DNA of 64,000 bases, taken from the NCBI GenBank assembly GCA_035471625.1, contig DATIPT010000167.1, positions 2,708-66,707 on the forward strand. The letters run 5' to 3'. This stretch comes from Anaerolineales bacterium (lineage in GTDB: Bacteria; Chloroflexota; Anaerolineae; Anaerolineales; E44-bin32). The position numbers and the translations under genes were made by a program. Numbering within the stretch: position 1 is the stretch's first letter; each line of letters opens with the position of its first letter. The notes below the pieces were generated by a model that searched no databases, was not told where the DNA came from, and saw only the letters and a program-made list of their open reading frames with translations. Shown in pieces: positions 8,260-34,717 of the stretch.

Positions 8260-8369
8260 ACTCGGCGCAGTATATCACACGGGTTCGGTCGGGCCGCGAG
8301 CACCTCGCCTGCGCCGGGACCGACGGCGCGGCGAATCCGAGGCGGCCGCCGCCGGTGGGCGGCGTGCGT

Positions 8370-16761: not shown

Positions 16762-16829
16762 CGTCGGCTCTCTCACGGCCGATTCTCACGCCCGTCTAAC
16801 ACTCCCCTGGCATTCTTGAATCTTCAATC

Positions 16830-17432: not shown

Positions 17433-17444
17433 ACCCCGCCCATC

Positions 17445-17458
17445 GATCGGGCCCGATC
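17445..17458. repeat. Perfect 14-nt palindrome GATCGGGCCCGATC between the LuxR gene and the protease genes.
   Basis: Read directly; the sequence equals its own reverse complement. Confidence 0.6.
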
Positions 17459-17551
17459 CCCAACTTTCGGTGGGGGCGGCACTCCCTCGGTTCCACTAGT
17501 CTTGAAACACGAGTGTGATCCTTCACGGGTCCGCATCAGGAGGAGAGGCGA

Positions 17552-18469
17552 ATGGATTCTCTGGTCATGCTTTCCGATTCGCTTGCGGCCGCAGCTGCCG
17601 CGGCGGCCGAGGGGACGGTACGGGTCGAGGCACGGCGACGGATCCCTTCAACGGGGATCCTTTGGGGGAGGGATGGTTTGGTGGTTGCGGCGAACCACAC
17701 GATCCATCCAAGAGCGGAGATTCGGGTTGGTCTTCCAGAAGGGGAGACGGTGGACGCCGCTCTTGTCGGCCGTGATCCGACGACCGACGTGGCGGTCCTC
17801 CGATTGACGAAGACAGGTGGGAAGACCCTGCCCGTTGCCGACCACGACAGGATTCAGGTCGGAAACCTGGTCCTGGCCGTTGGACGCCCTGGAGGCTCCC
17901 ATCAGGCGACGCTGGGGATTGTCAGCGCGTTGGACGGGGCTTGGCGAACGCCGCTTGGGGGGAGCCTCGAAAGGTTCCTCCAGACCGACGTCGTGATGGC
18001 GCCCGGGTTCTCAGGCGGGCCGTTGGTGGACGCGCGCGGCGCGCTGTTGGGGATGAACACATCCGGGCTGTTGCGCGGTCTGGCGATCGCGGTTCCGGCT
18101 CCGGCATTGATGCGCATCGTCGACGGACTGGCAACGTACGGGCGGATCCGGACCGGGTATCTGGGAGTCGGGATTCAACCGGCGCGACTATCGCCTTCGG
18201 CTCGCGAAGCCGCAGGGCAGGAGCGCGGACTCCTGGTCGCTTCCGTCGAGCCGGGAGGCCCGGCCGAGCTCGGAGGGATGCTGTTGGGCGACGTGATCCT
18301 GGCGGTTGATGGCGAGCCAGTCGAAAGCATGGAGGACTTGCTTGCCGTGCTGAGCGGTGACGTTGTCGGCAAGGATGTCCAGGTCCGGCTTATGCGAGGA
18401 GGCAACCGGAAGGACCTGAACCTCAGGGTCGGGGAAAGGCCCGCTCCGGTCGAAGAGGAGGAGGGATGA
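17552..18469 (+). CDS. HtrA/DegP-family trypsin-like serine protease with one PDZ domain.
   Basis: Triad contexts VAANHT, DVAVLRL, GFSGGPLV. PDZ-like GYLGVGIQ...VEPGGPAELGG.LLGDVILAVDG. GGAGGAG SD upstream. Confidence 0.88.
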   Translation: MDSLVMLSDSLAAAAAAAAEGTVRVEARRRIPSTGILWGRDGLVVAANHTIHPRAEIRVGLPEGETVDAALVGRDPTTDVAVLRLTKTGGKTLPVADHDRIQVGNLVLAVGRPGGSHQATLGIVSALDGAWRTPLGGSLERFLQTDVVMAPGFSGGPLVDARGALLGMNTSGLLRGLAIAVPAPALMRIVDGLATYGRIRTGYLGVGIQPARLSPSAREAAGQERGLLVASVEPGGPAELGGMLLGDVILAVDGEPVESMEDLLAVLSGDVVGKDVQVRLMRGGNRKDLNLRVGERPAPVEEEEG

Positions 18470-19098
18470 GCGACTGGCTCGACACCCTGGCGGAGAGCAG
18501 TGCCGAAGCCGTCGCGGCGGCGCGGCGGGCCTTGGTCTCGATCGAAACGGCCGGCCGCCCAGCCGGATCCGGGATCCTTTGGGCGCCGGGGATCGTCGTC
18601 ACGAACGCCCACGTGGTCAGCCGGAAACGCCTGGAGATCCGTCTGCCTGACGATCGAGAGATCCAGGCGAGGCGGGTCGCCTGGGACCCCGGCCGTGATC
18701 TGGCCGTCCTCGCGTTCGAGGGAGCCTCTCCGGAGCCGGCCCGGATCGGGGATTCGAGCGCGCTCCGTCCCGGAGAATGGGTGTATGCCCTCGGCAATCC
18801 CTGGGGCGTACGCGGCGGCGCCACCGCCGGGGTGGTGATCTCGCTGGAGGAACCTACCCCTGGCGGGAAGCGGACTTCCACCGGATGGCTTGCCCTCGCG
18901 CTTCACCTCCGGCCGGGTCACTCCGGCGGGCCGGTGGTGAACGCTCGCGGTGATGTCGTCGGGGTCAATCGAATGATGAACGGTCCGGAGGTGGGACTGG
19001 CGATCCCTTCGAACGCGGTCGAAGGATTCCTGAGGGAGACTGGTATCGCCAAGATCGGCCCTGCCGTCCGAAGGGCCGGCATAGCGGAGCTCGCTTGA
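18466..19098 (+). CDS. Trypsin-like serine protease (S1C-like) without a PDZ domain.
   Basis: VTNAHVV, DLAVLAF, GHSGGPVVN triad contexts. ATGA overlap with the upstream protease gene. Confidence 0.82.
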   Translation: MSDWLDTLAESSAEAVAAARRALVSIETAGRPAGSGILWAPGIVVTNAHVVSRKRLEIRLPDDREIQARRVAWDPGRDLAVLAFEGASPEPARIGDSSALRPGEWVYALGNPWGVRGGATAGVVISLEEPTPGGKRTSTGWLALALHLRPGHSGGPVVNARGDVVGVNRMMNGPEVGLAIPSNAVEGFLRETGIAKIGPAVRRAGIAELA

Positions 19099-19100
19099 AG

Positions 19101-19435
19101 ATGGATTCGCGCCTTGCTCGATTACGGTCGGAGGTCTTGGCTTGGCCCGGCGTGAAGGCGCAGGCGCATCGCTTTGGGGGCGTGGAGTTCCGATGGGCCG
19201 GCGCGAAATCAACCATGTGCATGGCGAATCGCTGGTCGATGTCCCGTTGCCTCGCGGGTTCAGAGATGCGTTCATTGCTCTAGCTGTCCCGAAGCATCGT
19301 GCGAGCTGGCCCGAGAGCAGCAAGAGAGACGAGGAGGGTAGGGCGGTTGCACCACTGGGCTTGGGATCCGGCCTGGTGACTCGTGAGGATCGCAAGGGGG
19401 TGGACACTTCCCGCTGCCTCAGGTCCGGGAACTCT
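19101..19435 (+). pseudogene. Frameshifted remnant of a small conserved protein. From memory it resembles DUF5519 / luciferase-like small proteins.
   Basis: Frame 1 gives MDSRLARLRSEVLAWPGVKAQAHRFGGVEFRW. From about 19191 the continuation GRREINHVHGESLVDVPLPRGFRDAFIA is in another frame, and one missing nt in TTC-CG-ATG-GGC restores EFRMGRREI. The 3' end is undefined. Confidence 0.35.
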
Positions 19436-19855
19436 CTAGTCGACGTCGAGGTCCGCCCCGATCAACCGGTAGTGTTCCTTCATCATGCAGCGGTTCATCA
19501 CGACCTGCAATCCGGCCTGCTCGGCCACCGCTGCCGCCTCGGCGTTGTAGATCCCTTCCTGCATCCAGACCGCTTTCGCCCCGATGGCGACAGCCTGCTC
19601 GACGAAAGGTTGGACTTCCGCCGACGGACGGAACAACTGGACGACATCGACAGGCCGATCGATCGACGCCAGGTCCGGATAGGTCGCAAGCCCAAGAACC
19701 TCCGACGCGTTCGGGTTGACCGGGATCAGGTCGTATCCCTGGGAGAGCAAATAGCGCCCGACGCCGTGGCTGGCCTTGGCCGGATCCTTCGACAGCCCGA
19801 CCACGGCGATCGTCTTGGACTCCTTCAGGATCCTGCGCAATCTGTCGTCACTCAC
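19436..19855 (-). CDS. CoA-binding domain protein (YccU/YneT-like).
   Basis: ILKESKTIAVVGLSKDPAKASHGVGRYLLSQGYDLIPVNP. GTG start at 19855 in a GTGA overlap with the kinase stop. Confidence 0.85.
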   Translation of the reverse strand: MSDDRLRRILKESKTIAVVGLSKDPAKASHGVGRYLLSQGYDLIPVNPNASEVLGLATYPDLASIDRPVDVVQLFRPSAEVQPFVEQAVAIGAKAVWMQEGIYNAEAAAVAEQAGLQVVMNRCMMKEHYRLIGADLDVD

Positions 19856-21246
19856 GCTTGCTCTTGCTCCCTTCGCATGGGGAGCCGGACACGGAAGCAA
19901 GTGCTTCCGGGACGCGACTCCACGGTGATCTGCCCTCGGTGATGCAGGGCGACAATGTTGTGGCTGATGTGGAGGCCCAACCCGGTGCCGACGCCGGGCG
20001 GCTTGGTCGAGAAGAAGGGTTCGAAGATCCGCGCGCGGATCTCCGGAGGGATTCCCGGGCCCGTATCGCGAATCTCAATGGAAACGTGTCCGTCGTCGAC
20101 CGCCGTCCGGATCCACAAATCGCCCTTCCCTTCCATCGCTTCGATGGCGTTGGCGATCAGATTGGTCCAGACCTGGTTGAGCTCACTGCCGTGAGCCTCG
20201 AACGGCGGCACCTCCGGCGAGTACTCCCGATGCACCGTGATCCCTGGTTCGAGCTTGCTCTTCAGGATGATCAGGGTGTCCTCCAGTCCGCGATGGAGAT
20301 CGATCGTCTGAACCGGGGCCTGATCGAGATACGTATAGGAACGGACCGCACCAACGATCTCAGAGATCCGCGTGGCGGCAACCGAAGCCTCTTCGAGCAG
20401 CTGGGCCAGATCCCGTGAAAGGGCCATCCAGGCGGCTGCAGCCGAGCGAGCCGGGGGCGCCATCGTCTGGAAGATGCCGCTCAAGCTCTGGGTTGTCATC
20501 CCGGCGCCAACCAGCGTCGGGGCCAGGTCCCAGGCGTCCGCGACGCCCTGGGCTTCCAACCAGGCCTGCAGTTCGGATTCGCGATCGCTTCGTTCGAGGG
20601 GGTCGAGTGTGAGGCCTGGCCGCGGCCCGCCGGGACCCGACTCTCCAGCGAGCGTTTCCAATGCTGTCTCGTCGATCCCGAGTTCGTGCAATCGGGCATG
20701 GGCCCTGCGCCACGCGGAGAGAACAGCCTGCAGCCGATCCACCGACCGGCGCATGGCGGCGGCCGGGTTGTTCAGCTCGTGGGCGAGCCCTGCGGCGAGG
20801 GTGCCGAGCGCGGCCAGTGTCTCGGTTTGGCGGAGCATCGACTGGGTGTGACGCAGGCGCGCCGAGATCGTGTGCAGGATCCGCAGGGACGCCGTGGGGC
20901 TCGTTTCGACCAGGCGACGGAAGGCCTCCTGGTCGATTTCGAGCAGACGGCTGGCGCCCAGGGCTCGAACGGTTGCGGTGCGCGGCGAGCCGTCTAGCAA
21001 CGACATCTCCCCGATGACTTCCCCGGGACCGCGCACCGCGATCAGCACTTCGGCCGGTCCCGAACGCTTGGTGATCTCGAAGTCGCCTTCGAGAATCACA
21101 TACAACGAGCCCCCTGGGCTTCCCTCGAGCATCAAGACCTCGCCAGGGGCCAGGCTCTTGGGGCGCGATCCGTCTGCGAGTACGTCCAATTCGTCCGGGC
21201 TGAGGTCGGCAAAGAGGGGAAGGCGCTGCAGGCTCTCGTGGTTCAC
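19852..21246 (-). CDS. Sensor histidine kinase with an N-terminal cyclic-nucleotide-binding (CNB) domain.
   Basis: CNB: [13 protein letters not shown] ... [17 protein letters not shown] (phosphate-binding cassette with Arg). H-box [11 protein letters not shown]. HATPase N/G boxes ([22 protein letters not shown]). GTG start at 21246 in a GTGA overlap with the upstream stop. Confidence 0.88.
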
Positions 21247-22898
21247 AGGGTTTGCAGGTACTGACGGATGATGGCGACGGCAGCGGCGCCCTCGCCGGTC
21301 GCTGAGGATACTCGGTGGCTCGTCCCGAAGCGGACATCTCCGGCGGCGAACACCCCGGGCAGGCTGCTCTCGAACGCGTAGGGATGGCGGGAAAGGGTCC
21401 ACCCCGGAGGGAGCTTCCCTTCGCGCGTCAGGTCCGGGCCGGTGAGGATGTAGCCCTTTTCATCGCGGGCCACCTGCTCGGCGACCAGACCGCTCTCCGG
21501 ACGGACGCCGATGAAGACGAACAGGGCCGCGCCCGGCAGAGTCTGTTCTTCACCGGTCCGGTTGTTCTTGACGCGCACCGACTCGAGGCCTTCGTTCCCA
21601 TGCACCTCGATCAGATCCGTATTCGTCAGAATCGCGATCCGCTCATTCCTCCGCATGGCTTCCACCAGGTATCCGGCTGCCGTGGGTTGATCGGCCCGGA
21701 CCAGAACGGTGACTTTGTTGGCGAAAAGGGCCAAGTACATCGCGGCCTGGGCCGCCGAGTTGGCCCCTCCGATGACGAATACGTCCCGTCCGGCGAAATA
21801 TCCGGCCTCCGTGTGCGCGGATCCGTAGTACACCCCGCGGCCGGTCAACTCCGACGCGCCGGGCATCTTCAGGATCCGGAAGGTGGCTCCGGACGCCAGC
21901 AGGACGGCGCCGCAGGTCAACTCGCCGCCATCCTGCAGGCGCACGATCCGATACGGATCGCGCCGTTCAACCGCAACGGCTTCCTGGGCGCTGAGGATTT
22001 CGGTTCCGAAGCGCCTGGCCTGGGCCACGGCCCGCTGGGCCAGATCGCCCCCCGAGATGCCTGCGGGAAATCCGAGGTAGTTCTCGATCTTGGGGCTCCG
22101 GCCGGCCTGACCGCCTGGCGCGGCGCGCTCAATCAGGACCACTCGCATCCCTTCGGAGCTCCCGTAGACGGCCGCTGCCAGCCCGGCTGGGCCACCGCCG
22201 ATGATGGCGACGTCGTAATACTCGCGCGCCGCCGCCGTCTGCAGGCCCAGCTTTGCAGCAAGCTCTCCAGGGGAGGGTGCCGCCAGAGTCGTTCCGTCGG
22301 GGAAGAGCAATGTCGGCACGACCGGAGCTCCGGACTCGGTGGCGATCGCCAACGCCTTGGCCTGCTCATCGCGGTCGATGTCCAACCACAGATACGGGAT
22401 CTGATGACGCGCCAGGAAGTCCTTGGCGATATGCGACGCAGGCGACCAGAGCGCCCCGACGAGGCGGATGCCCTCGAACGCCGGCTGGGCCTGGCGCCGC
22501 CATTCGTCAAGCAGATCGTCGAGAACGGGGTAGAGCCTCTCCTCCGGCGGGTGCCACGGTTTCATCAAGTAGTGGCTCAAGCCGATCTCGTTGATCGCCC
22601 GGATAGCCGCCTCGGTGTCGGCGTACGCCGTCAGCAGGACCTTGCCGGCGTCCTCGGCCAGCGGCCTGGAGGCCGCCAGGAAATCGATCCCCGACATACG
22701 CGGCATGCGCTGATCGACGACAAGCAGCGACACCGGTTCGCCGCGAGCGGCCAGCTGGCGCAAGACTTCGAGACCCTGGTCGCCCGACTCGGCGGTGACG
22801 ATCCGGTAGTCGCGGCCATAACGAGCGCGCAGGTCTCGTTCAATCGATTGGCGAACGACGGGTTCGTCGTCGATGGCGAGGATAGCGGGTCGGGGCAA
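21243..22898 (-). CDS. Response-regulator receiver fused to a glutaredoxin-like fold and a thioredoxin-reductase-like FAD/NAD(P) flavoprotein. Both CxxC motifs are absent.
   Basis: REC with DD (10-11), D62 and K113. Grx-like segment with WSPAS (151-155). DVAIIGGGPAGLAAA FAD motif, VFVIGGANSA NAD(P) motif, GVFAAGD. The CATC position reads SAHTE (360-364). The protein has a single Cys. Confidence 0.88.
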   Translation of the reverse strand: MPRPAILAIDDEPVVRQSIERDLRARYGRDYRIVTAESGDQGLEVLRQLAARGEPVSLLVVDQRMPRMSGIDFLAASRPLAEDAGKVLLTAYADTEAAIRAINEIGLSHYLMKPWHPPEERLYPVLDDLLDEWRRQAQPAFEGIRLVGALWSPASHIAKDFLARHQIPYLWLDIDRDEQAKALAIATESGAPVVPTLLFPDGTTLAAPSPGELAAKLGLQTAAAREYYDVAIIGGGPAGLAAAVYGSSEGMRVVLIERAAPGGQAGRSPKIENYLGFPAGISGGDLAQRAVAQARRFGTEILSAQEAVAVERRDPYRIVRLQDGGELTCGAVLLASGATFRILKMPGASELTGRGVYYGSAHTEAGYFAGRDVFVIGGANSAAQAAMYLALFANKVTVLVRADQPTAAGYLVEAMRRNERIAILTNTDLIEVHGNEGLESVRVKNNRTGEEQTLPGAALFVFIGVRPESGLVAEQVARDEKGYILTGPDLTREGKLPPGWTLSRHPYAFESSLPGVFAAGDVRFGTSHRVSSATGEGAAAVAIIRQYLQTL

Positions 22899-22926
22899 GG
22901 GCTACACCATTCGAGTTGAGGCCATT

Positions 22927-24729
22927 CTACCTCCCAGGAGCTCCCCCACGTCCGCGCTGGAAGATCATCTGGATGATCGGCTGGCGACGGAACGCATCAT
23001 CGAGGCCAAGCGGGGCGAGGCCGATGGCGACGGCTTCGGCGTGCTCGGCCGCGCCGGCATAGTCGCGCCGGGCGTCATCCGAGCGCCCGTCGGCCTCGGC
23101 GAGCTCAGCCAGATGCATCTCGATCTCCCACAATCCGACGGTGACCCCGTGCCCCCCAGCGATCTCGAGGGCCGTCTGAAGCTCGGCGCGCGCCTCGGAA
23201 CGCCGGCCCTGGCCGAACAAGGCCTGGCCGACCGCCATGTGGAGCTTCGGTGTGACCATATGGGCGCCCAAGGCATCCGCCTGGGAGAGGAGGGCCTGGG
23301 CCACGACTTCGGCCCGCATGAAGTCGCGGCGGCCGAGGTGGTAGTCAACCTGCGCATAGATGAAGGGCACAGGATCTTCCATGAGGGACAGGGAACGCGG
23401 GTCACCTCCAAGGTCTGCCTCGAGGGCGTATCGTTCGGCCGTCCCCAGGTCCCCGGTCCACGTCGCGAGCCAAGCTCGGCTGGCCAGGCCTGCTCCCATC
23501 ATCATCGGAGAAGGATGCTCCTCCTCGAACTGCCGTACCTGATCGGTGAGGGCTGCCGAGGTCTTGGCGTCTCCGGCGAGGGCGTAGACAATCGCCAGGA
23601 CCGATCTCAGCGCCACTTGGGGGTAGAGGAACCCTGCGTGCTCGGCGAGCTGGATACATCGCTGCATCTCGAGGATGGCCGGGCCGAGCTCGCCGCGTCC
23701 GAAGTACGCAAACGAGGGCGCGACGCGACTGTAGGATTGCCCCCACAGGTTTCCGATTCGATCGCTGACGGAGATCGCCTCGGCCGAAAGCTCGAAGACC
23801 TGGTCGTAGTCGGCGGTGTAGGCGCGCAGCAGGGCCAGGGACGACAGGCTGTCAGCCAACATCGGAAGGTTGTCGAGTTCACGCCAGATCGGCCGGGCTT
23901 CCTCGGAGGCACGGGCGGCCTTGCTGGTTTCGCCGATGACGAAGTAGTTGGAGGCGATGTCGTTCAGGATATAGGCCTCGCGTTCACGCAGGCCGTGCTC
24001 TCTTGCCAAGGACAGGGCCGCTTCGCCGGAACGGACGGCCGCATGCGGATCTATGCGGGTCAAGGCCAGCAATTGGATCCACAGCGCCCGCGTCTCGTTG
24101 GCCACATCGGCGGCCTTACGGGCCAGCACCAGCGCCCGCTCCGAGAGGGCCAAGGCGCGCGGCGGATCGAACAGGCGGGTCGGGACGGCATGCAGGGAGG
24201 CAGCGCCGAGGATGCCGGCGCATTCCAGAGACGCGGACCGCCGATCCCGGCCCAGGCGCTCCAGCGCCTCGTACGTCTCCAAGGCGCCTTCATACTGGCC
24301 GGAAAGGTCAAGGCAGCGGCCACGGCGCTCGTGCAAGCCCATCAAATCCGTCTCCGACACGCCCACGGCCTGGGCGTGGGCGATCGCCCGGCCGAAATGG
24401 TCGGCCGCTTCACGCGCCGCGAATCGCCTCATGGCCTCGTCGCCGGCGACGGTGGCGTAGCGCAAGGCCTTGTCCGGAATCCCGGCTTGCTCAAAGTGGG
24501 CCGCGAGCACTCCGGGAAGATCCAGGCGTCCACTGGAGGCTTTCTGTTCCAGGACTTCACCGACGAGCCGGTGAAGGTCCTTGCGGTCTTGGACCAGCAT
24601 CGACTCATAGGCGACCTGCTGCACCAGGTTGTGCTTGAAAGTGAAAGTCGGCTCGGCTTCAACGATGGCTCGTATGAGCTGGCGAGTCTCGAGTCGCTCT
24701 AGGGCGGCGCCAAGGTTCATCGCGGCCAT
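22927..24729 (-). CDS. Winged-helix plus TPR-array protein (STAND-type sensor arm), paralog 2.
   Basis: Starts MAAMNLGAALERLETRQLIR...FTFKHNLVQQVAYESML followed by about 500 aa of TPR-like helical repeats. ATG 24729 lies 4 nt after the TAA of the upstream paralog. The track ORF extension to 25113 is Arg/Pro-rich and rejected. Confidence 0.75.
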   Translation of the reverse strand: MAAMNLGAALERLETRQLIRAIVEAEPTFTFKHNLVQQVAYESMLVQDRKDLHRLVGEVLEQKASSGRLDLPGVLAAHFEQAGIPDKALRYATVAGDEAMRRFAAREAADHFGRAIAHAQAVGVSETDLMGLHERRGRCLDLSGQYEGALETYEALERLGRDRRSASLECAGILGAASLHAVPTRLFDPPRALALSERALVLARKAADVANETRALWIQLLALTRIDPHAAVRSGEAALSLAREHGLREREAYILNDIASNYFVIGETSKAARASEEARPIWRELDNLPMLADSLSSLALLRAYTADYDQVFELSAEAISVSDRIGNLWGQSYSRVAPSFAYFGRGELGPAILEMQRCIQLAEHAGFLYPQVALRSVLAIVYALAGDAKTSAALTDQVRQFEEEHPSPMMMGAGLASRAWLATWTGDLGTAERYALEADLGGDPRSLSLMEDPVPFIYAQVDYHLGRRDFMRAEVVAQALLSQADALGAHMVTPKLHMAVGQALFGQGRRSEARAELQTALEIAGGHGVTVGLWEIEMHLAELAEADGRSDDARRDYAGAAEHAEAVAIGLAPLGLDDAFRRQPIIQMIFQRGRGGAPGR

Positions 24730-24733
24730 TCGC

Positions 24734-26545
24734 TTATCCCACCAGGCGCTCGACGTCGTGACGGGCAAAGAAGGAGGCGCGCAGAGAGGGCTCTCGAAGG
24801 TCCGAGCCGAGCGACTCGACGATCGCCCGCGCGGCGGCGCGCGGCCTGCCGTCGTCGCCCTGGCCGAGGGCCTCGATTGCATCGGCCAATCCGGCCAGGA
24901 TCGGCCACTGGAGAGACCGAGCGCCGGTGTTCTTGAGGAGGTCCAGGGCTTGTTCGTGATCGCGACGAGCGTCTGCCCAGGCTCCCTGCGCGGCGAGCAG
25001 GCGGCCGCGCCAGAACCGCATTTCGGCTGAGAAGCGATTCGTTTCCTCCAGGTCCAGTCGCTCCAGCAACCCGGACGCAAAGCGAACGCCGCCTTCGAGG
25101 TTGCCGCGTGCAAGGTCGAGCTGGGCCATCACTGGTCCGATGTAGTAGTAGTTCTGGAATCCGGGGACGATGCCACTGGGCAGGTCGCGGAATTCCTCGA
25201 GGAGGGCTTCGGCGCCGTCGAGGTCCCCCTCCGACAGGCAGGCCAGGGCACCCAGGGATTGGACCCACGAGTACCACTCATCGGTCGGCGAGGCCGACGC
25301 CTCCCACAGGCGTACGGCGGCCCGGGCATGACCCGCACCCTTGGCAGGTTGCCCCAAGTCGATCCAGACGCGGGCCAGGATCGAGTTGAGGGCAAGACGG
25401 AAACCGATGAACGGTACGCGGGCGGCGTACCCGATGAGCCGATTGCCCTTCTCCAGCGCCGTCTCCCATTCGCCCTGATCAGCATGCACCTGGACCCGGG
25501 CCCATCCGTTGTAGGCGACTCCCCACGGATTGTCGATCGACTGCGAGATGACCTGGCCCTCCTCGGAACATCGGGTGGACGTTTCGAAGTCCGCGCCGGC
25601 CTGGTGGAGATTGGCCAGGCCCGCCAGAGCGTCGGCGACCATGGCCCGATTTCCAAGGTCGCGGAAAGCCTCCAGGGCCTCGCCGCCGTACTGAAGGGCT
25701 GCCTTGCGCCGGCCGCTGGTCAGCCTCGAGACCATCAAATCGATGAGGATGTGGGCTTCGGCCTCGCGCACGCCTGCTTCCGGAGGGAGGGAGGCGCAGG
25801 CCGGGCCGCGCGCGATCTCCAGGGCCTGAGAGAAGAAATCATCGGCGCGACGCGGGTCGCGGAACCGGTGGCGCAGGCCGCGGTTCCACAGAGTCTTGGC
25901 GAGCAGCAATTCGTCCCCGGCCTCCCGGGCGAGGGCCTCGGCGCGTTCCAGCAAGGGCTCGACGTCGACGGACTGTGCAGAGGTGACGACGGCCAACGTC
26001 GCTTGACGGAGCAACGCCTCTGCCTCCAGCGCCGGATTCACCATTTGCCGGGCGAAGGCCTCCAGCTCCTGGTGAACCTGAAGGGCTTCCCTGTGCCGCC
26101 CACCAATCTCAAGGACCGTCCCCTTGCCGAGAAACGCGTCGCGAATCCCCGGCGCAAACTCCGCCGGGGGCAGGCGGGGCGCCACTTCTAGCGCAAGGTC
26201 AAAGTTGACGACGGCTTCCTCGACGGCGTGGTTGCGCTGCGCCAAACTACCGGCCCGCAAGGCGAAGTGAAAGGCCTGACGGTCGTCCCCGCCGTGGCGG
26301 TAGTGGAGGGCCAAGACCGCGGGTTGGAGCGTGGCCGCTTCGGGAAGCACGCGCAGGATGGATTCGGCCACCTGACGATGCACTTCGGCGCGCCGTTCCC
26401 TCAGCAATCCAGCATAGGCAGCCTCCTGGATCAGGTTGTGCTTGAAGCGATACTCGCCCTCCGCCCCTTCGCCACTGGGGCGAACCAGGTCGGCGGCTTC
26501 GAGGCGGCCCAATTCCTGCGACAGGAGTTCGGGAGTCGGCTTCAC
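24734..26545 (-). CDS. Winged-helix plus TPR-array protein (STAND-type sensor arm), paralog 1. It is either a separate gene or the frameshifted C-terminal part of the cyclase-NTPase.
   Basis: VKPTPELLSQELGRLEAADLV...EYRFKHNLIQEAAYAGLL followed by TPR repeats. GTG start in a GTGA overlap (26542-26545) with the cyclase-NTPase stop. Confidence 0.7.
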   Translation of the reverse strand: MKPTPELLSQELGRLEAADLVRPSGEGAEGEYRFKHNLIQEAAYAGLLRERRAEVHRQVAESILRVLPEAATLQPAVLALHYRHGGDDRQAFHFALRAGSLAQRNHAVEEAVVNFDLALEVAPRLPPAEFAPGIRDAFLGKGTVLEIGGRHREALQVHQELEAFARQMVNPALEAEALLRQATLAVVTSAQSVDVEPLLERAEALAREAGDELLLAKTLWNRGLRHRFRDPRRADDFFSQALEIARGPACASLPPEAGVREAEAHILIDLMVSRLTSGRRKAALQYGGEALEAFRDLGNRAMVADALAGLANLHQAGADFETSTRCSEEGQVISQSIDNPWGVAYNGWARVQVHADQGEWETALEKGNRLIGYAARVPFIGFRLALNSILARVWIDLGQPAKGAGHARAAVRLWEASASPTDEWYSWVQSLGALACLSEGDLDGAEALLEEFRDLPSGIVPGFQNYYYIGPVMAQLDLARGNLEGGVRFASGLLERLDLEETNRFSAEMRFWRGRLLAAQGAWADARRDHEQALDLLKNTGARSLQWPILAGLADAIEALGQGDDGRPRAAARAIVESLGSDLREPSLRASFFARHDVERLVG

Positions 26546-28461
26546 GATCTGCCTGCGGGGGACTGGTGCTCGACCACATCTTCCAGGATCCGAACCTGGA
26601 ACGTCCGGCCGATCACCGAGGCGATCTGAAGTACACGCTTGGCGTCTTCCGGCAAGCGGTCGATGCGTGACGCCAGGACGCCCTGAAGCGTATCGGGGAT
26701 CCGGAGTTGGCCGGCATCGCTGCTCAGGCGCCAGACCTCCTCATCTCGTTCCAGGACCCCCTGGTCGATCAACATGCGCAGCACCTCTTCCACGAAGAAG
26801 GGATTCCCCTCGGCCTTCATCTGGATCAAGGTCCGGATCTCTTCCGGAAGGTCCTGCACATCGAGCAAGTTCTCGACAAGATGCTCCGTATCCGCTTCGG
26901 AGAGGGGCGCCAGGTGGATCTCGATCGCCCCGCCGCCGGCGGTCTCGCGCGCGGCTTCCAAGAGCCGCCACCCCGGCGAGTCTCTTTCCGGCCGAAGCAC
27001 CAGCGCGACGACCAGAGGGACCTCCCCCACAACCGGCAGAAGTTTGGCGCCGAGGTCGACGGAGGACGGATCGGACCAATGCACATCCTCACAGACGATC
27101 ACCGTCGGGGTCTGTTGGCACATGTGCCGGAGGAGTTCGGCATAGGCCGACACGTACCGAGCCTGAAGGGCCGGGCCGTCGAGGTACTTGACCCGGGCGG
27201 CGGCGTCGCCCTCCAATTCCAGACCCAACAGGTGGGCCAGATAGGGGCGGACCTCGTCGGTCGGTTCGCCGAACGCCTTCTCCAGCGTACGGTCCAGCGC
27301 GGCGCTGAGTTGTTCTGGGGTAGCCTCCGGACCGGCACCGATCAGGCCGCGCAAGATCTCGGTGCTGAGGTGATGGGCCATCGCCGCGCCAAAGGAGAGG
27401 CAGCGGGCCTCCACCCAGCGCAGCGGGGGGGACGCCTCTGCCGGAGCGTGGCGCCGCCACTCCGCAACCAGTCGCGACTTGCCCAGGCCGGCCTCACCGA
27501 CGATCGCGACCGTTGCTCCCTGGCCTTGGCGTACATCGTCGAGGATTTGGACCAGGGTCGAGAACTCGCGCCGTCGCCCGACCATCGGCGAGTCGACGCC
27601 GGCGATGCCGCGTGGTCGGACGGCGCCCTTGCGCGCTCCCAGGACCCGATAGATGTGGATCGGCTCGGCCTTTCCTTTGACCGAGATCTCCCCCCTATCT
27701 TCGAAGTCGAAAAGGGTCGAGACCAGGCGGTGGGTGTCGCCGGTGACGAGGATCGTGTCCGGGTCGGCGGCGCTCTGGACCCGCGCCGCCAGGTTGATTG
27801 TGTCCCCGACGGCCAGATACTCCATGTGCAAGTCGTCGCCGATCGTGCCCACGACGACAAGGCCCGTGTTGATCCCGATGCGGACCTGAAAATCGGGCAC
27901 GCGAGCGGCGGCAACGAGTTCCTCGCGGTAGCGACGGACTGAATCGAGAATCGCCAGGCTCGATCGGATCGCCCTCTCCGGATCGTCCTCATGCGTCAGC
28001 GGCGCGCCGAAGAACGCCAACACGCCATCGCCGAGGAGTTGGGCAATAGTGCCTTCCAGCCGGTAGACCTCCGCGCTGACTCGTTCGTGGGCGCCGGTGA
28101 CGACGTCACGCCAGTCTTCGGGGTCCATCGCTTCGGCCAGCGACGTCGATCCGACGATGTCAACGAAGAGCGCCGTGACGCGTTTACGCTCGCCCTCGAT
28201 GCGGCTCCGATCGGCGAGGACCTTCCGCGTCAGGGAGGCCGGCGCGGCGCTCCGAATGGCTGCCAGCCCGGAGCTTGGGCGCGCCGTCGCTCCGGGGAGG
28301 GCGCCGGCGTCGGCAAGGTTGTGCCCGCAGTGCCGGCAGAACCGCGCCTGTGGTGAGACCGCTCGCCCGCAATTGGGGCAGGTGGCCTCCAGGGGGCTGC
28401 CGCAGGACTCACAGAACCGGGCGTCGGCTGGATTCCGGTGGGAGCAGATTGGACATTCCAT
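26542..28461 (-). CDS. Double zinc-ribbon plus class III adenylate/guanylate cyclase domain plus P-loop (STAND/AAA_16-type) NTPase.
   Basis: CPICSHRN..CESCG / CPNCGR..CRHCG ribbons. Cyclase metal Asps in ALFVDIVGST and LLGDGVLAFFG, and transition-state N/R in GDTINLAAR. Walker A GEAGLGKS, Walker B VIVCEDVHW. Confidence 0.88.
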   Translation of the reverse strand: MECPICSHRNPADARFCESCGSPLEATCPNCGRAVSPQARFCRHCGHNLADAGALPGATARPSSGLAAIRSAAPASLTRKVLADRSRIEGERKRVTALFVDIVGSTSLAEAMDPEDWRDVVTGAHERVSAEVYRLEGTIAQLLGDGVLAFFGAPLTHEDDPERAIRSSLAILDSVRRYREELVAAARVPDFQVRIGINTGLVVVGTIGDDLHMEYLAVGDTINLAARVQSAADPDTILVTGDTHRLVSTLFDFEDRGEISVKGKAEPIHIYRVLGARKGAVRPRGIAGVDSPMVGRRREFSTLVQILDDVRQGQGATVAIVGEAGLGKSRLVAEWRRHAPAEASPPLRWVEARCLSFGAAMAHHLSTEILRGLIGAGPEATPEQLSAALDRTLEKAFGEPTDEVRPYLAHLLGLELEGDAAARVKYLDGPALQARYVSAYAELLRHMCQQTPTVIVCEDVHWSDPSSVDLGAKLLPVVGEVPLVVALVLRPERDSPGWRLLEAARETAGGGAIEIHLAPLSEADTEHLVENLLDVQDLPEEIRTLIQMKAEGNPFFVEEVLRMLIDQGVLERDEEVWRLSSDAGQLRIPDTLQGVLASRIDRLPEDAKRVLQIASVIGRTFQVRILEDVVEHQSPAGRS

Positions 28462-28510
28462 GTCACTTCCTTTGGTCGATCTCGGGTTGGAGGCTTGCGG
28501 GACCGTCCGC

Positions 28511-31500
28511 CTACCCGAGGGTGCTCATCCGCTCCGCCATGCTCCCGAGCATCGCCAGTCCGACCTCCGGGCGATCCTCTAGGATCGAGCGCAGGGCTTC
28601 CCCGCGAAGCACAAGGACGCGAACCTCGCCCTGACCGATCACGCTCGCCGAGCGTGGTTGCTCACGCAAGATCGCGAGCTCCCCTACATACTCGCCCGCC
28701 TGCAAGGTCCGCAACAGGCGATCCTCTCCGTCGACCCGCTTCCGCACTTCAACCATGCCTTCGATGAGGACGAACAGCTCGTCGCCGACTTCGCCCTCGC
28801 GGCAGAGCGCTTCGCCGGCCGCATACAGGCGTTCCGTGGCCGCGCCGGCGACTTGCTCCAGGTCCTCGGGCTCCAAGAGGCGGAATATCGGAACGTCCTT
28901 CAAGAAGAGAACGCGTTCCACAGTGCCGAGTGTGGCTGAGGTCTCGATCATGGGACCTTCCTCGATGGGGCGAGGGATGGCGCGACGGACGTTGGGATCG
29001 GGATCGGCGGACGTTTCCCGAAGGATATCATCCCACTCCTGCAAGACGGATTCGGCGCGGCTGCGGAGCGCCAGGGCACGGTACCATGCCCGTGGATGAC
29101 GGGCCAGGGCCTCGAGGGCTTCCTGGGGTTCCGCCTTGATGTCCTTCTCCCTCGGCTCAATGAGTTGAAGCAGGCCTTGCGCCACGCGCCGATTGCCGAT
29201 GGATTCGAGAGCCTCCATGGCCTGGGAACGGATGTCGGCGTCGCGCGCCTGGAGGGCTCGACCGACGACCCGCATCGCCTCCGGAGACTCGGCTGAGCCG
29301 AGGGCGAGGAGGACGCGCCGTTGCGTCAAACCTTCCTCTCGACCCAGGAGTACGCGAAGGTACGCCGCCGCGCTGGCCGTGGGTTCCGCCCCGAGCGCCA
29401 GGCGCCATCGGCGTTGATCGTGTGCCTCTTGGAGACCACGGTCTGCCCACTCCAGGAGGGCATCTTTCGAACGTCCGCCGCGACCTGCAAGGGCGCGGAC
29501 GGCTTCCAGTTGGGCCGGCGGCGAGCCTCGCTCAAGGACCTCGATGAGCGCGGCTTCGGATTCTTCCCACGCCGAGAGTGCTCCACCGGCCGCCCGACGG
29601 ACTCTGGCATCAGGATCCTCCAGCGCGACCGCCAGCGTCTTCATCCCGGCCGGGGTTCTGTTCTTCTCGAGGGCGCCAATGGCCGCAAGCCGCATAGCCC
29701 GATCCCCGTCCTCGAGGACCCGGATCAGCTGTTCCGTTGCCGCGAGCCCCTCAACCTCGGAACATGCCTTCAACCCGGCAAGGCGGGCCCGCGCCGAGTC
29801 GTCCGCCAGCAGGGCCGAAATCGCATGCCCGCTGGCCTCCCGGTCTCCGACGGCATCCGCCGCGATCGCCGCCTGCGCCCGGAGCTCGGGATCAGGGTCG
29901 GTGAGATACATCGAGAGCCTGTCGGATGGCACTTTGCCGAGGGTGGCCAGCGAACGCAACGCTGCGGCGCGGACGGCGGGATCGCTGTCCTCCAGGAACG
30001 AAACCGCGAGTTCGGCGGACCGCTGCGAGGGGAGAGATCCCAGCGCGCCGGCGGCCGCAGCGCGAACGTCCGGGTCTGGATCCGAGCGCAAGGCGCCGAT
30101 GGCCTCCGCGTACTCGCTGGCTTCGAGGCGGACGAGGATCTGCACCGCCATTCGGCGGATGGAACCGCGCCGGTCCTTGAGGCCTTCGGCGGCTACCGAC
30201 TTCGCCTGCGAGTCCTTGCGCATTGTCTTGCCTTGCAGCTCGATCGGTGCGAACACGTCGGAGATGCCTTCCCGCAGGGCGGAAAGCAGGGAGTCTCCGT
30301 AGGTCTTCCGCATTCGCCAGACGACGGCGGTGCACACCACCGCCACGAGGATTCCCATCGCCAGTGCCTGGGCCTGGGTGAGGCCGCGCTGACCCAGGAG
30401 GAGCAGGACGCCGGAAAGCATGACGCCGGTCTGCGCCGGTGGTCCGGATAGATACGCGCGCACGCGGGCCCGCGTGTCCTCCGGGACGACATTGAAGATG
30501 GCGGCGTACGCGGTGCTGGCCAGCCCACCGATGAGAACGAGCTGGGCGAAACGCAGGAGCACGGCGGTCTCCAGGCGAAGGTCGATGGACCACATCAGGA
30601 AGCCGCCGAGGTAGACCAGGGGCAGGATCAGGATCGTGTTGATGATCCCGATGCGGGCATACACTCGGCTGGCAAGGAGCAGCGAGACGGCGAAGGTTGT
30701 GGCCGTCGCGATGCCTCCGAACGCACCCAGGAACCCGGCCAGATCGGCTTCGCTTGGGAAGGCGGCTGCGACCTGGACGTTGAAAGGGAAGGTGACCGAG
30801 AAGAAGAGAACGGAGAAGAGCAAGCCGGCGATGGCGGTCAGCCGCATCGTGGCGTTCCGCCACACCAGGTGATGAGCCTGCTGCAGATCCTGGAGGGGGG
30901 ATCGGTGGGCGGCGAGGCGCGGACGGAGGCGGCCGAAGCGACGAATCCATACGTGCGCGACGAAGCTCCCCAGGAGGAGCAAGGCAGCGAAGCCGACGAG
31001 CAGGGTGGGGGTCCCAAAGGCCTGGGCCGCGGGGCCGGTCAGGAATCCGGCGAGGACGCTTCCGAGGATCCCGGCACTGGCGAAGAACGCGAACAGCCGC
31101 TTGCCCTGCCGCGGATCGCAAACCTCCCCGGCCAGGATCCAGACCATGGTCCCGAGGATCGCGTTCACCAACGCAACCGCAAGCCACAGGAACGGGTAGA
31201 TCTGGGGTGGGGCGAAAAGCGTCGCGGACCACGAGACGAGCCCCATTCCCCCGGCCGCCACCAGCATGAGGATGGATATCCGGCTTCGATCCGGTCGGCC
31301 AAGGACGGCGGAGTAGGCCGTCGTGGTCAACAAGGTTGCGGCCCCCAAAGCGATGAACAGGATCGGCAAGACCTCGACGCCGAACCGCTGAAACAACAGG
31401 GCGTCGGCGGCGTTCGCGGAGAACACCTGGGCGGCTTGCAGGGAAGCGAAGAAAGCAGCGCCGAGGAGTGCGAGTCCGCCTTCGCCCGGGCGGATCTGGA

Positions 31501-31522
31501 ACCATCCGGCAATGCGCGACAT
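28511..31522 (-). CDS. Fusion protein. N-terminal ~12-TM permease (MFS / ADP-ATP-translocase-like TLC type), central HEAT repeats, C-terminal cyclic-nucleotide-binding domain.
   Basis: About 430 aa of hydrophobic helices. Repeated D(P/S)DP.VRAAA..ALG HEAT units. CNB domain FLKDVPIFRLL...GELAILREQPRSASV. ATG 31522 preferred; TTG 31549 is the alternative start. Confidence 0.8.
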   Translation of the reverse strand: MSRIAGWFQIRPGEGGLALLGAAFFASLQAAQVFSANAADALLFQRFGVEVLPILFIALGAATLLTTTAYSAVLGRPDRSRISILMLVAAGGMGLVSWSATLFAPPQIYPFLWLAVALVNAILGTMVWILAGEVCDPRQGKRLFAFFASAGILGSVLAGFLTGPAAQAFGTPTLLVGFAALLLLGSFVAHVWIRRFGRLRPRLAAHRSPLQDLQQAHHLVWRNATMRLTAIAGLLFSVLFFSVTFPFNVQVAAAFPSEADLAGFLGAFGGIATATTFAVSLLLASRVYARIGIINTILILPLVYLGGFLMWSIDLRLETAVLLRFAQLVLIGGLASTAYAAIFNVVPEDTRARVRAYLSGPPAQTGVMLSGVLLLLGQRGLTQAQALAMGILVAVVCTAVVWRMRKTYGDSLLSALREGISDVFAPIELQGKTMRKDSQAKSVAAEGLKDRRGSIRRMAVQILVRLEASEYAEAIGALRSDPDPDVRAAAAGALGSLPSQRSAELAVSFLEDSDPAVRAAALRSLATLGKVPSDRLSMYLTDPDPELRAQAAIAADAVGDREASGHAISALLADDSARARLAGLKACSEVEGLAATEQLIRVLEDGDRAMRLAAIGALEKNRTPAGMKTLAVALEDPDARVRRAAGGALSAWEESEAALIEVLERGSPPAQLEAVRALAGRGGRSKDALLEWADRGLQEAHDQRRWRLALGAEPTASAAAYLRVLLGREEGLTQRRVLLALGSAESPEAMRVVGRALQARDADIRSQAMEALESIGNRRVAQGLLQLIEPREKDIKAEPQEALEALARHPRAWYRALALRSRAESVLQEWDDILRETSADPDPNVRRAIPRPIEEGPMIETSATLGTVERVLFLKDVPIFRLLEPEDLEQVAGAATERLYAAGEALCREGEVGDELFVLIEGMVEVRKRVDGEDRLLRTLQAGEYVGELAILREQPRSASVIGQGEVRVLVLRGEALRSILEDRPEVGLAMLGSMAERMSTLG

Positions 31523-31735
31523 GTCAGGCTTTGGCTTGTTCGACCTCAATCGCCAAGCGCACAGGCCTCGCAGGCCGGCGCCGAGGCTTGGGTAGGGAGC
31601 ATCCCATTGCAGGGCAGGTTCCGCTCACCGCGTCGGGCCGAACGCAAAGGCCCTCGACGGAACCCTGGCCATTATACGTCCACCGGGCCAGGTCCCGGCT
31701 GCGGCGGGTTGTTGCGCCGGTCCAGGAACGAGGGC

Positions 31736-32854: not shown

Positions 32855-33230
32855 CAAGGTACTCCTGGAGCAGGATCGCTGCCGCCCGGGCATCGACAAG
32901 CGAATCCTCCGGGCCGAGAGCAAGCGCCGCCTGAGTCGACCCGCTCTCGTCCCAGGTCTCGATGGTCGGCGCGCCGGCCAAGGCCAACGCCTCCTTCAGG
33001 CGCATCGCCCGCCGGGCCTGGTGCCCGATCTCGCCATCCTCGGCGTAGGCGATCCCGATGACGATGAGGTCGGCATCTTCCTGGGTTGCGATGGCGACGA
33101 TCCGCGCCGCGTCGCGGTTTCGGGTCTCATGTTGGAGAACGCGAAGCGGTCGCGCGATCGTCCGAGTGGGATCGGAGATCGCCAGGCCCAGCCGGGCTTC
33201 ACCGGGATCGATCGCCAGAACGCGGCTCAT
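32835..33230 (-). CDS. ruvX: Putative Holliday junction resolvase / pre-16S rRNA nuclease RuvX (YqgF).
   Basis: MSRVLAIDPGEARLGLAISD N-terminus. Start at ATG 33230 in an ATGA overlap with the upstream gene. Confidence 0.88.
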   Translation of the reverse strand: MSRVLAIDPGEARLGLAISDPTRTIARPLRVLQHETRNRDAARIVAIATQEDADLIVIGIAYAEDGEIGHQARRAMRLKEALALAGAPTIETWDESGSTQAALALGPEDSLVDARAAAILLQEYLDAHRPA

Positions 33231-34717
33231 GGAATATCGCTGATCCAGACCGGACGGATCCGCCAGGGTAGCAACGGGAGGCGCGGCCACCATTCGGGCC
33301 AGATTCGGATGCGCGGCGAGACCTGCAGATCGAGTTCACGGAGCAGCATCGACTCGGCCTCGTGCGGCGCCTTCGCCGCCAGTCGGGTGGCGACGTCAGA
33401 AAAGTCCACGCGTCGCAGCGCATCGGCCCGGACGACGGCTTGATACTGATCGGGCCGGGAGGTTGGTTGGAGTTCGATACGAACGCTCTCTGGAAGCACC
33501 AAGAGGTCCTCGCCCGCCGATTCCGTGATCGCGTCGGCCGACCAGCTTGCCAGCCGAACGGCATCGTAGGCAAGGGCGCTGGCGAGAAGGCGGAGACGCA
33601 CGGCGACGCTTTCGGATGGCTGGCCGACCGCCGGACGGCTCTCGAAGGTGAGCCGGTCTTCAATCTGGATCGATTGAGGCGCGATGGCCTCGCCGTCCGC
33701 CAGCGAATCGGAGATCTCGGTCGTGGCCTCCTGGAGCAGGCGGGTCTCCAGGGCGTCAAGGGCCCGATCGACATCGGCCTGGCTCACGCCGGAGGTCTCG
33801 GAGGTGGCGCCCCCGTCGGTGGGTTCGGGATTCTCGACCGAGACCTGGAGCCCCAGCAACCCTTCGACGGCGACGATCGCACCGGCGGCGACATTCCCTT
33901 GCGGGCCCGGCGCACTCGCCCGAATCGCCACCTCGACCTGCGAGCCGATCCCGGCAGGAAGAAGCGTCCGCTCGATCGTTTCAAAGCGGATCGAGGGTTC
34001 ACTGGCCGTGCGCAATCCGGTGGCCTCCGGGATCACGACCTCGACTTGGTCTCGATTCGTGAAGAGCGCGGTCCCTTCGGCCGATGTGGCGGGCGCTTGG
34101 ATTCTCCCTTCGGTCGGAAGCCGGAGTTCGCCCTCGACAGATGTCCGGACGCGCCGGGCTGGGATCGTCACCAGCCCGTCCTCCGACAGGTCTTCGGAGG
34201 TCAACGCGAGAGCCAGGCTTTCCGTCTGCGGATGGATCGACGGGGTGAGTTCGACGACCGCCACCGGACCGACGGCGACCGACAGGGCAAGCAGCGCTGC
34301 GATGACAAATAGAACCCAGCCGGCGCGCCAGGGGTCTTGAGCTTGTCGCGGGCCGCCAGGCCAGCTTCTATCCGATCGAACCGGCCTGGCTCGCTTCTCG
34401 TGCGGCGGAGAGACGGAAGGAGGATCGGCCTCCGCGTCTGGCCACGCGTCGGCCGTCACCGAGTCGAGGTCATCGAAGACTGGAACGTTCAGGTCCCGTG
34501 CGTGCTGGCGCACGTCGGGGTCATGGACGACGACGCCAAGGCGGGCGCCCTGCCGCCTTGCTTCCCTCCGGAGCAAGACGAGGTCAAGGCGGCGGGGAAG
34601 GACCCGGCCGTGGCCCGGCCAAACCAGGACGATGCGCTCAGCCTTCGCCCAGCGCAGGCGGTCGCGGGCCGACGACGTGTCGTCATAGGGATCGAGGTGG
34701 ACGATCTGGATTCTCAT
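33227..34717 (-). CDS. Uncharacterised single-pass membrane protein. It has a ~95-aa cytoplasmic N-domain, a TM helix (WVLFVIAALLALSVAV) and a large exported domain with a baseplate-J/gp47-like segment.
   Basis: Coherent 496-aa ORF translationally coupled to ruvX. The segment APGPQGNVAAGAIVAVEG resembles the baseplate-J family core from memory. No function assignable. Confidence 0.6.
   Translation of the reverse strand: MRIQIVHLDPYDDTSSARDRLRWAKAERIVLVWPGHGRVLPRRLDLVLLRREARRQGARLGVVVHDPDVRQHARDLNVPVFDDLDSVTADAWPDAEADPPSVSPPHEKRARPVRSDRSWPGGPRQAQDPWRAGWVLFVIAALLALSVAVGPVAVVELTPSIHPQTESLALALTSEDLSEDGLVTIPARRVRTSVEGELRLPTEGRIQAPATSAEGTALFTNRDQVEVVIPEATGLRTASEPSIRFETIERTLLPAGIGSQVEVAIRASAPGPQGNVAAGAIVAVEGLLGLQVSVENPEPTDGGATSETSGVSQADVDRALDALETRLLQEATTEISDSLADGEAIAPQSIQIEDRLTFESRPAVGQPSESVAVRLRLLASALAYDAVRLASWSADAITESAGEDLLVLPESVRIELQPTSRPDQYQAVVRADALRRVDFSDVATRLAAKAPHEAESMLLRELDLQVSPRIRIWPEWWPRLPLLPWRIRPVWISDIP

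Follow-up and report, generated by a model that had tools for sequence, protein, structure and literature searches.

A probable cyclic-nucleotide signalling cluster in Anaerolineales comprising a split STAND cyclase, a CNB-domain histidine kinase and a cysteine-free flavoprotein response regulator

A cluster of seven genes (g1 to g7) was analysed in a 64,000-nucleotide stretch of an Anaerolineales genome (assembly GCA_035471625.1, contig DATIPT010000167.1, positions 2,708 to 66,707, hereafter the window). We consider it probable (about 0.6) that these genes specify a cyclic nucleotide monophosphate (cNMP) module, in which a cyclase head (g2) gated by separate sensor arms (g3 and g4) would produce a messenger acting through a histidine kinase with a cyclic-nucleotide-binding (CNB) domain (g6) on a flavoprotein response regulator (g5) and, in parallel, on a CNB-containing permease (g1). 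The seven open reading frames (ORFs) lie in the same direction on the minus strand between 19436 and 31549 (Table 1), and the intergenic distances from g1 to g7, read at the junctions themselves, are 49, -4, 4, 28, -4 and -4 nt. This is the layout described in an earlier note made from the sequence alone, apart from the gene starts: the public call for g1 begins at ATG 31522 and not at TTG 31549, and g4 starts at 24729. Every domain claimed in that note was also recovered in Pfam and NCBIfam profile searches. Three junctions (g2/g3, g5/g6 and g6/g7) are GTGA start/stop overlaps which, together with the short gaps, suggest translational coupling.

According to the proposed mechanism, an arm-specific ligand or protein signal would activate the g2 head, with g3 and g4 being alternative arms for different inputs; each arm would supply the missing half of a winged helix plus TPR repeats, and the head probably pairs with either of them. 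Nucleotide-dependent STAND oligomerisation would then allow the cyclase domains to meet and to form cNMP. Binding of this predicted product to the CNB domain of g6 would alter autophosphorylation at His156, the phosphoryl group would move from His156 to Asp62 of g5, and the phosphorylated receiver (REC) domain would switch the flavoprotein module of g5, which combines a thioredoxin reductase (TrxR) fold with a glutaredoxin (Grx) fold and could be either an oxidoreductase linked to NAD(P)H, with a non-disulfide acceptor, or a scaffold that senses redox state. The same cNMP would bind the C-terminal CNB domain of the g1 permease and thereby gate transport, and g7 would have an accessory role.

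The cyclase domain of g2 scores 88.2 bits against Guanylate_cyc (PF00211), for which the curated cut-off is 21.9, and its best match among solved structures is P. aeruginosa CyaB (3R5G, E=1e-32). The two metal-binding Asp residues (D101 and D145) and the transition-state pair N223/R227, which had been described as intact, are invariant in 123 homologues. The same protein contains a P-loop NTPase of the NOD type (AAA_16, 79 bits), with a Walker A motif GEAGLGKS that includes the invariant K328 and a Walker B motif VIVCEDVHWSD. The residues expected to read the base are of a different kind: the adenine-specifying Lys position is occupied by Q141 (Gln in all 120 heads) and the Asp/Thr specificity position by L216 (Leu in 119 of 120), so that g2 has neither the Lys plus Asp/Thr signature of adenylyl cyclases nor the Glu plus Cys/Arg signature of guanylyl cyclases. 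Fused cyclases located beside g5-g6 in other genomes have R and T at these two positions. It may be that the Gln/Leu pair specifies neither cAMP nor cGMP but some other nucleotide; as a default guess, by analogy with the mycobacterial cyclase Rv0386, the product would be cAMP. Rv0386 was reportedly found, in work of Castro et al. from 2005, to carry Gln/Asn in place of the Lys/Asp specificity pair and yet to make cAMP.

Comparison with the TIGR03903 profile (TOMM system kinase/cyclase fusion, 1267 positions) clarified the relationship between g2 and the two genes that follow it. On its own g2 reaches 221 bits, below the cut-off of 705.75, and has no kinase part; it covers profile positions 279-803, g3 covers 807-1128 and g4 covers 807-1201. 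As these ranges abut, g2 and g3 represent successive parts of a single ancestral cyclase-NTPase-TPR protein, of which g4 is another copy of the C-terminal part. Pfam detected TPR in both g3 and g4, and the concatenated sequences g2|g3 and g2|g4 are colinear with single-chain homologues of 1097-1267 aa that adjoin g5-g6 in other genomes. In the AlphaFold model of P0269 (pLDDT 85.6), a relative of the fused type, the winged helix is canonical and consists of helix 538-550, strand 553-555, helix 556-562, a loop, helix 568-577 and a hairpin at 581-594. The end of g2 corresponds to residue 566 of this model and residue 6 of g3 aligns at the same place; for this reason the break is predicted to fall in the H2-H3 loop, inside the winged-helix domain, and we infer that two chains rebuild one winged helix. 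The NOD-winged helix-repeat sensor is thus not a single polypeptide here, as g2 stops after H2, and H3, the wing and the TPR repeats are on g3 or g4. Rather than the independent sensors that the earlier note had made of them, g3 and g4 are detached C-terminal arms of a cyclase-STAND protein.

A split of this kind could also result from pseudogenisation of a fused cyclase or from an assembly error, g3 and g4 then being non-functional remnants or duplicates; fused homologues of 1100-1270 aa do exist, and a frameshift could yield a GTGA overlap. We find this explanation hardly credible, since the same end point and a length of 628-660 aa are shared by 119 of the 120 best head homologues (58-100% identity), the sole exception being a 576-aa entry that covers 89% of the query, and such uniform length rules out an assembly error. 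Among the 150 best relatives of g3 in 1.84 billion representatives, about 120 were stand-alone clusters of 560-630 aa sharing the same start residue, and about 25 were fused. Moreover, the arms are intact, of constant length and present in one to four copies in at least six genomes, and the heads have their own Q141/L216 signature, distinct from the R/T of their fused neighbours.

Further comparisons were based on a genome scan with one genome per species, in which neighbourhoods were analysed in 80 species loci; individual loci are cited below by their L numbers. Recoding of g2/g3 by frameshift or readthrough is ruled out, given that the junction frames differ between loci: relative to the head, the arm of the window occupies the -1 frame, that of L001 follows a 4-nt gap in another frame, and that of L003 is in frame with its head after the stop codon and a further 24 nt. 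The two arms of the window share 29% identity (tblastn E=1e-34), and both have orthologues in L001 (53% and 47% identity, respectively) and in L003 (41% and 38%); since these orthologues exist despite the low mutual identity, g3 and g4 are old paralogues that have been maintained separately. The number of arms per head varies, with one in L087, two in the window, L001, L003 and L005, three in L086 and four in L011, and identity to L001 is 68% for heads and 46-53% for arms. One possible, though as a whole rather doubtful, extension of the proposed mechanism is a multiplexed split STAND receptor, in which one head would use any of several TPR arms and several inputs would converge on one messenger; this joint reading also includes a possible messenger other than cAMP and cGMP, a cysteine-free flavoenzyme with new redox chemistry and a permease resembling nucleotide transporters.

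In its order of cyclase, P-loop STAND NTPase and TPR, the g2-g3 assembly resembles the mycobacterial cyclase-ATPase-TPR-LuxR proteins Rv0386 and Rv2488c (for the Rv0386 architecture, see bioRxiv 10.1101/2024.03.06.583649) and class IIIc cyclase-STAND-TPR proteins in general. It differs from the Rv0386 type in being split within the winged helix, with one head and two arms (one to four elsewhere), in having zinc ribbons at the N-terminus, in its Gln/Leu specificity pair and in having no DNA-binding output. The NOD, winged helix and TPR logic is also that of STAND regulators of the AfsR/MalT type, with ligand-controlled oligomerisation as in the NOD-TPR regulator AfsR (PMC10936776), but those are single-chain proteins with a DNA-binding output, whereas in this cluster a cyclase is the output and the sensor is predicted to be an exchangeable subunit of its own.

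Hydropathy analysis of the seven genes placed transmembrane segments in g1 only, which is why g6 is considered a soluble histidine kinase. Its H-box, AHELNNP, claimed earlier to be intact, is invariant in 69 kinases, and Pfam HisKA gave no match in g6. Between the H-box helix and the region preceding HATPase_c there are about 130 poorly conserved residues (residues ~160-290, positions 20400-20780), possibly a domain inserted into the dimerisation/phosphotransfer module. The CNB domains (PF00027) of g1 and g6 score 77 and 79 bits. That of g6 matches the structures of PKA, PKG and CRP, its cassette aligning with the PKA and PKG cassettes, and the g1 cassette reads GELAILREQPRSASV; both phosphate-binding cassettes are canonical and retain the Arg, as had been proposed.

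The receiver of g5 (Response_reg, 56 bits) keeps D10, D11, D62, T90 and K113 in about 80 of 82 orthologues, in agreement with the claim of an intact receiver Asp. The remainder of the protein matches low-Mr TrxR and AhpF both in a PDB sequence search and in Foldseek, where its AF2 model (pLDDT 83.7) gave a target-normalised TM-score of up to 0.94 against TrxR, and the GGGPAG and GGANSA motifs of the two-Rossmann FAD/NAD(P)H fold are invariant. Like AhpF/NTRC-type fusions, g5 carries a Trx/Grx-fold domain N-terminal to its TrxR-fold FAD/NAD(P)H module; it differs from them in its N-terminal REC, in a 19-residue insertion ahead of the GD motif, in the reduction of HRRxxxR to one invariant Arg and in the replacement of the four redox cysteines. 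None of the 82 orthologues, which come from all phyla, has a Cys at either CxxC position. The TrxR motif, CATC in the reductases, reads Y-Y-G-A-A-x-T-E-A (YGAAxTEA), with Y358, E364 and A365 invariant and E364 aligned with the acid/base Asp of TrxR, and the Grx motif reads W-S-x-x-S-H (WSxxSH), with neither CxxC nor CxxS. The scores against TIGR01292 (thioredoxin-disulfide reductase; 239 bits, cut-off 343) and TIGR02200 (glutaredoxin/mycoredoxin; 37 bits, cut-off 89.5) are both below the cut-offs.

Because all four redox cysteines have been lost family-wide, g5 is not expected to be a thioredoxin reductase, and the NCBI name of its family, 'fused response regulator/thioredoxin-disulfide reductase', is probably wrong. 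With the FAD and NAD(P)H motifs kept and the cysteines gone, g5 is probably a functional flavoenzyme that is not a disulfide reductase, and would have to use a non-disulfide acceptor, unless it is a redox-sensing scaffold. The Grx-like/TrxR-like module of the earlier note is thus right as to folds and wrong as to redox function. That note had also stated that such domain pairs exist as annotation names, which holds and understates the case: regulators joining REC to TrxB are already a catalogued class (PMC9739842, PMC9953108), to which g5 belongs, and they include members with a paired kinase, such as Streptomyces coelicolor SCO7298 ('trxB3') with SCO7297. The g5 family departs from what the TrxB name implies in its missing CxxC motifs. 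One Leptolyngbya genome contains one TrxB regulator and one cNMP_binding kinase (PMC9953108). For SCO7298, literature searches returned nothing beyond expression data (PMC9952706, PMC2631018); searches for a REC-TrxR regulator, CNB-kinase or bacterial zf-UBP partner that had been characterised yielded only catalogues and expression data, and no account was found linking TrxB-type regulators to a CNB kinase and a cyclase.

The membrane part of g1 has about 11-12 hydrophobic segments, where the earlier note had proposed a 12-transmembrane permease. Its matches to the transporter families MFS_1 (E=1e-3) and TLC (E=0.018) are both sub-threshold, and no sequence match was found for it in the PDB. 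At least 120 clusters make up the g1 family, with proteins of about 1000 aa that go by the names 'Npt1/Npt2 family nucleotide transporter' or 'HEAT repeat protein', and PF03219 or PF07690 is found in some of these relatives. As for g7, it lies downstream of g5-g6 in about 15 loci, all from Chloroflexota, and in none of the loci from other phyla; it thus seems to be part of the kinase/regulator unit in its Chloroflexota form.

Relatives of g5 were detected in at least 595 species genomes from seven or more phyla, including Chloroflexota, Cyanobacteria, Acidobacteriota, Gemmatimonadota, Actinomycetota, Planctomycetota and Proteobacteria. A g6-like kinase adjoins g5 in 67 of the 80 loci, mostly immediately downstream, and unbiased ORF clustering revealed no other universal neighbour of g5, so that the conserved ancient core is the regulator/kinase pair. 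The cluster is therefore not the fixed block of seven genes assumed earlier; it is modular, and most genomes have g5-g6 only. Co-conservation in relatives, which had been proposed as a check, was nevertheless found. All seven genes are kept in the closest relatives (g5 identity of 76%, 75% and 69%), and the whole cluster is kept at 59-76% g5 identity, including loci with different flanks: L086 has a g1-like gene, four intervening genes, a head, three arms, g5, g6 and two copies of g7, and L011 has a head, four arms, g5, g6 and g7. A co-oriented cyclase-STAND gene stands directly beside g5-g6 in four further lineages (L011, L027, L068 and L069), as a fused cyclase immediately upstream in L068 and in the Gemmatimonadaceae locus L069, and immediately downstream in L027 (Chloroflexia). 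L087 contains a zf-UBP gene, a CNB-kinase, a head and an arm, with no g5; in L089 a fused cyclase lies directly upstream of a g1-like gene; and in L023 and L090 the genes g5, g6 and g7 are followed by a g1-like gene. Owing to these rearranged loci, each pairwise link of the circuit can be said to recur independently.

The distribution of the cassette Arg (R89 in g6) points in the same direction. A co-oriented cyclase is adjacent in 5 of 18 Arg-containing lineages and in 0 of 37 lineages without Arg (Fisher p=0.0025, or p=0.012 when the doubtful L061 is counted against the trend, in a test that is not phylogenetically corrected). Cyanobacterial, acidobacterial and most Gemmatimonadota kinases have V/F/Y/A at the Arg position, or 'GxLPYSR', and among Gemmatimonadota loci a canonical cassette or an adjacent cyclase occurs only in L069. 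The cyclase of L061 was treated as a chance neighbour of g5, being on the opposite strand, about 6 kb off, and accompanied by a kinase without the cassette Arg. The wiring of a cyclase writer to CNB readers, as first proposed, is thus backed both by adjacency in rearranged loci and by the cassette-Arg pattern.

Several observations weigh against the seven-gene module, the lack of phylogenetic correction in the above test among them. In most genomes that encode g5-g6, neither a cyclase nor g1 lies within 10 kb, Chloroflexota are rich in cyclase-STAND genes, and the closest relatives retain unrelated flanking genes as well, so that their synteny alone is uninformative. The cassette Arg is present in 21 of 69 family kinases and missing in 48, and since most of them have no such Arg, the ancestral g5-g6 pair need not be controlled by cNMP. 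In addition, the product of g2 is not assignable, because neither the ATP nor the GTP signature accompanies its conserved catalytic residues, and no substrate can be named for g5.

It could thus be argued that only g5-g6, with or without g7, form a functional unit, and that the cyclase, arms and permease constitute a separate operon brought close by lineage-specific chance, the kinase responding to cNMP made elsewhere or to another ligand. More than 55 of the 80 loci have g5-g6 without cyclase or g1, L004 retains the g5-g6-g7 trio alone, the conserved flanks of close relatives fit this view too, and cyclase-AAA_16-TPR genes are numerous (3057 matches at E<=1e-30). Nevertheless, we regard this alternative as unlikely, considering that immediate co-oriented adjacency recurs across orders, flanks and phyla, that cyclase adjacency is restricted to kinases with a canonical cassette, and that the gaps of 28 nt (g4-g5) and 49 nt (g1-g2) offer scant space for separate control.

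Some loci showed additional features around the g5-g6 pair. In L014, L025 (343-1749), L038 and L046, g5 is paired with an upstream kinase that has a receiver-like N-terminus (…PGMDGFQVLE…DIPVIVISA…) and no CNB domain, which appears to be an alternative input for the g5 regulator family. A zf-UBP protein of about 90-123 aa, with the motif WVHLRxCLxCGHVGCCDxSKNKHAxxHF, is encoded beside g5/g6 or a CNB-kinase in 13 loci (L023, L025, L029, L033, L041, L043, L051, L058, L067, L068, L071, L087 at 8245-8553 and L090 at 7569-7844) that span at least four phyla and include lineages whose kinase has no cassette Arg. It may be a third partner of the g5-g6 core; the gene is absent from the 64-kb window. 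In L004, a diversity-generating retroelement (RVT_1 and bAvd) with NACHT-FGE-sulfatase flanks, at 14936-21450, adjoins the trio, and in L086 a Trypsin gene and MoxR-DUF58-BatA/VWA genes lie between the g1-like gene and the head. An apparent g5-g6 fusion in L085 (845 aa, Pyr_redox-CNB-HATPase) was treated as an assembly artefact, as its contig (contig_4546, 2 Mb) is full of fragmented genes, with alaS, the arms and g5/g6 fragmented or fused, most likely through frameshift errors in a long-read assembly.

The window is a chromosomal segment with a G+C content of 66%, whose proteins are closest to those of metagenome-assembled genomes of Anaerolineales/Chloroflexota. Its genes are of the housekeeping kind (miaA, mutS, pyrimidine-nucleoside phosphorylase, HtrA-like proteases, mltG, ruvX, alaS, ddl, tyrS, rtcB, ftsW, pyrG and recG), and no mobile or defence genes were found in the 64 kb. 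This setting bears on another possible role, that of an NLR-like or Pycsar-like anti-phage or conflict system, in which infection would trigger cNMP synthesis and the CNB effectors would be g1 and the kinase branch. cNMP cyclases do serve in conflict systems of multicellular bacteria (PMC7159879), and the cluster shares with Pycsar a single cyclase and CNB readers that include a membrane protein; the PADLOC models PycC and PycTIR match the cyclase as well as the two CNB domains, and a conserved head with multi-copy, faster-diverging arms would suit such a function. These matches are weak and generic, however, reaching 56-60 bits or less compared with 117 bits to CyaB, and g3, g4, g5 and g7 have no specific defence match, the only PADLOC match of g3 being a weak generic TPR (E=4.5e-05). 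The region is syntenic across genomes, the arms are kept as orthologous pairs instead of being turned over, and the readers are a kinase with its flavoprotein and a transporter, under a STAND/TPR-regulated cyclase, instead of toxins or TIR/pore effectors. Membership in Pycsar was consequently rejected, and a role in conflict is in our view very improbable.

A TATAAT hexamer in the gap between mltG and g1 suggests that the cluster, read here as a cNMP module, may have its own promoter, considering that most other such hexamers in the window precede ORF starts: there are five on both strands of the 64 kb, and three of the other four lie no more than about 32 nt upstream of the starts of alaS (37510), an amidohydrolase ORF (13976) and fhaA (43169). 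A promoter consensus scan of 18.8-33.2 kb returned zero promoters, and terminator-like sites in the same interval were at or below shuffle expectation, both scans being uninformative for a high-GC genome.

Among the neighbouring genes, tandem HtrA-like genes at 17552-19098 (plus strand; Trypsin_2-PDZ followed by Trypsin_2 alone, with a 4-nt overlap) are convergent with g7, and adjoin the cluster also in L001, L003 and L085. A 496-aa ORF at 33227-34717 (minus strand) with a Baseplate_J-like match (E=1e-8) lies between alaS and ruvX-mltG, odd company for housekeeping genes, and keeps the same position in L085. Two paralogues with FhaA_N and FHA domains are found in tandem at 43169-44905 (plus strand), the first of them being the one preceded by TATAAT.

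Table 1. Coordinates of the seven genes, their domains and a candidate promoter element in the window.
Feature	Position	Strand	Evidence or remark
g1, MFS/TLC-like permease-HEAT-CNB	28511..31549	-	Pfam, hydropathy; public call from ATG 31522 gives 1003 aa
g1 membrane part, about 11-12 transmembrane segments	30317-31477	-	Hydropathy, 6+6 layout
g1 HEAT repeats	about 28970-30205	-	HEAT_2 1e-33
g1 C-terminal CNB	28574-28831	-	cNMP_binding 1e-21
g2, head	26542..28461	-	Pfam DZR, Guanylate_cyc, AAA_16; ends mid winged helix
g2 double zinc ribbon (DZR)	28315-28455	-	Pfam
g2 class III cyclase	27661-28185	-	Pfam Guanylate_cyc 6e-25
g2 AAA_16 STAND NTPase	27010-27585	-	Pfam 6e-22
g2 first half of winged helix	about 26545-26676	-	Comparison with fused homologue
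g3, arm 1: second winged-helix half and TPR solenoid	24734..26545	-	GTG start overlaps g2 stop (GTGA)
g4, arm 2: paralogue of g3, same winged-helix start position	22927..24729	-	TPR; TIGR03903
g5, response regulator	21243..22898	-	Pfam, NCBIfam
g5 REC	22545-22883	-	Response_reg
g5 Grx-fold domain without Cys	22248-22457	-	Mycoredoxin-like stretch
g5 TrxR-fold FAD/NAD(P)H module without CxxC	21246-22217	-	Pyr_redox_2 1e-36
g6, soluble histidine kinase	19852..21246	-	Pfam
g6 N-terminal CNB	20902-21159	-	cNMP_binding 3e-22
g6 H-box His156	20779-20781	-	AHELNNP
g6 HATPase_c	19873-20187	-	Pfam 5e-27, 95 bits
g7, small CoA_binding_2 protein	19436..19855	-	Pfam 1e-42; start overlaps g6 stop (GTGA)
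TATAAT hexamer, candidate -10 element	31671..31676	-	In the 186-nt mltG-g1 gap

Each part of the cluster is of a known kind. What appears to be new, judging from the comparison of sequences, is the split within a domain that leaves one head with several arms, the TrxR/Grx output that is cysteine-free throughout its family, the Gln/Leu signature of the cyclase, and the comparative evidence joining a cyclase, a CNB-kinase, a REC-flavoprotein and a CNB-permease. Literature searches found no characterised cNMP-gated histidine kinase, and the cluster, if the proposed mechanism is true, would be a concrete and testable instance in which a cyclic nucleotide acts directly on a two-component phosphorelay. 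At least 595 species carry the probably mis-named g5 family, whose members are not expected to be disulfide reductases and would instead place flavin chemistry under the control of phosphorylation. Finally, a head with exchangeable arms would be a simple bacterial analogue of the modular sensor swapping of NLRs, and may offer a tractable system for studying how ligand recognition is linked to effector activation in STAND sensors.

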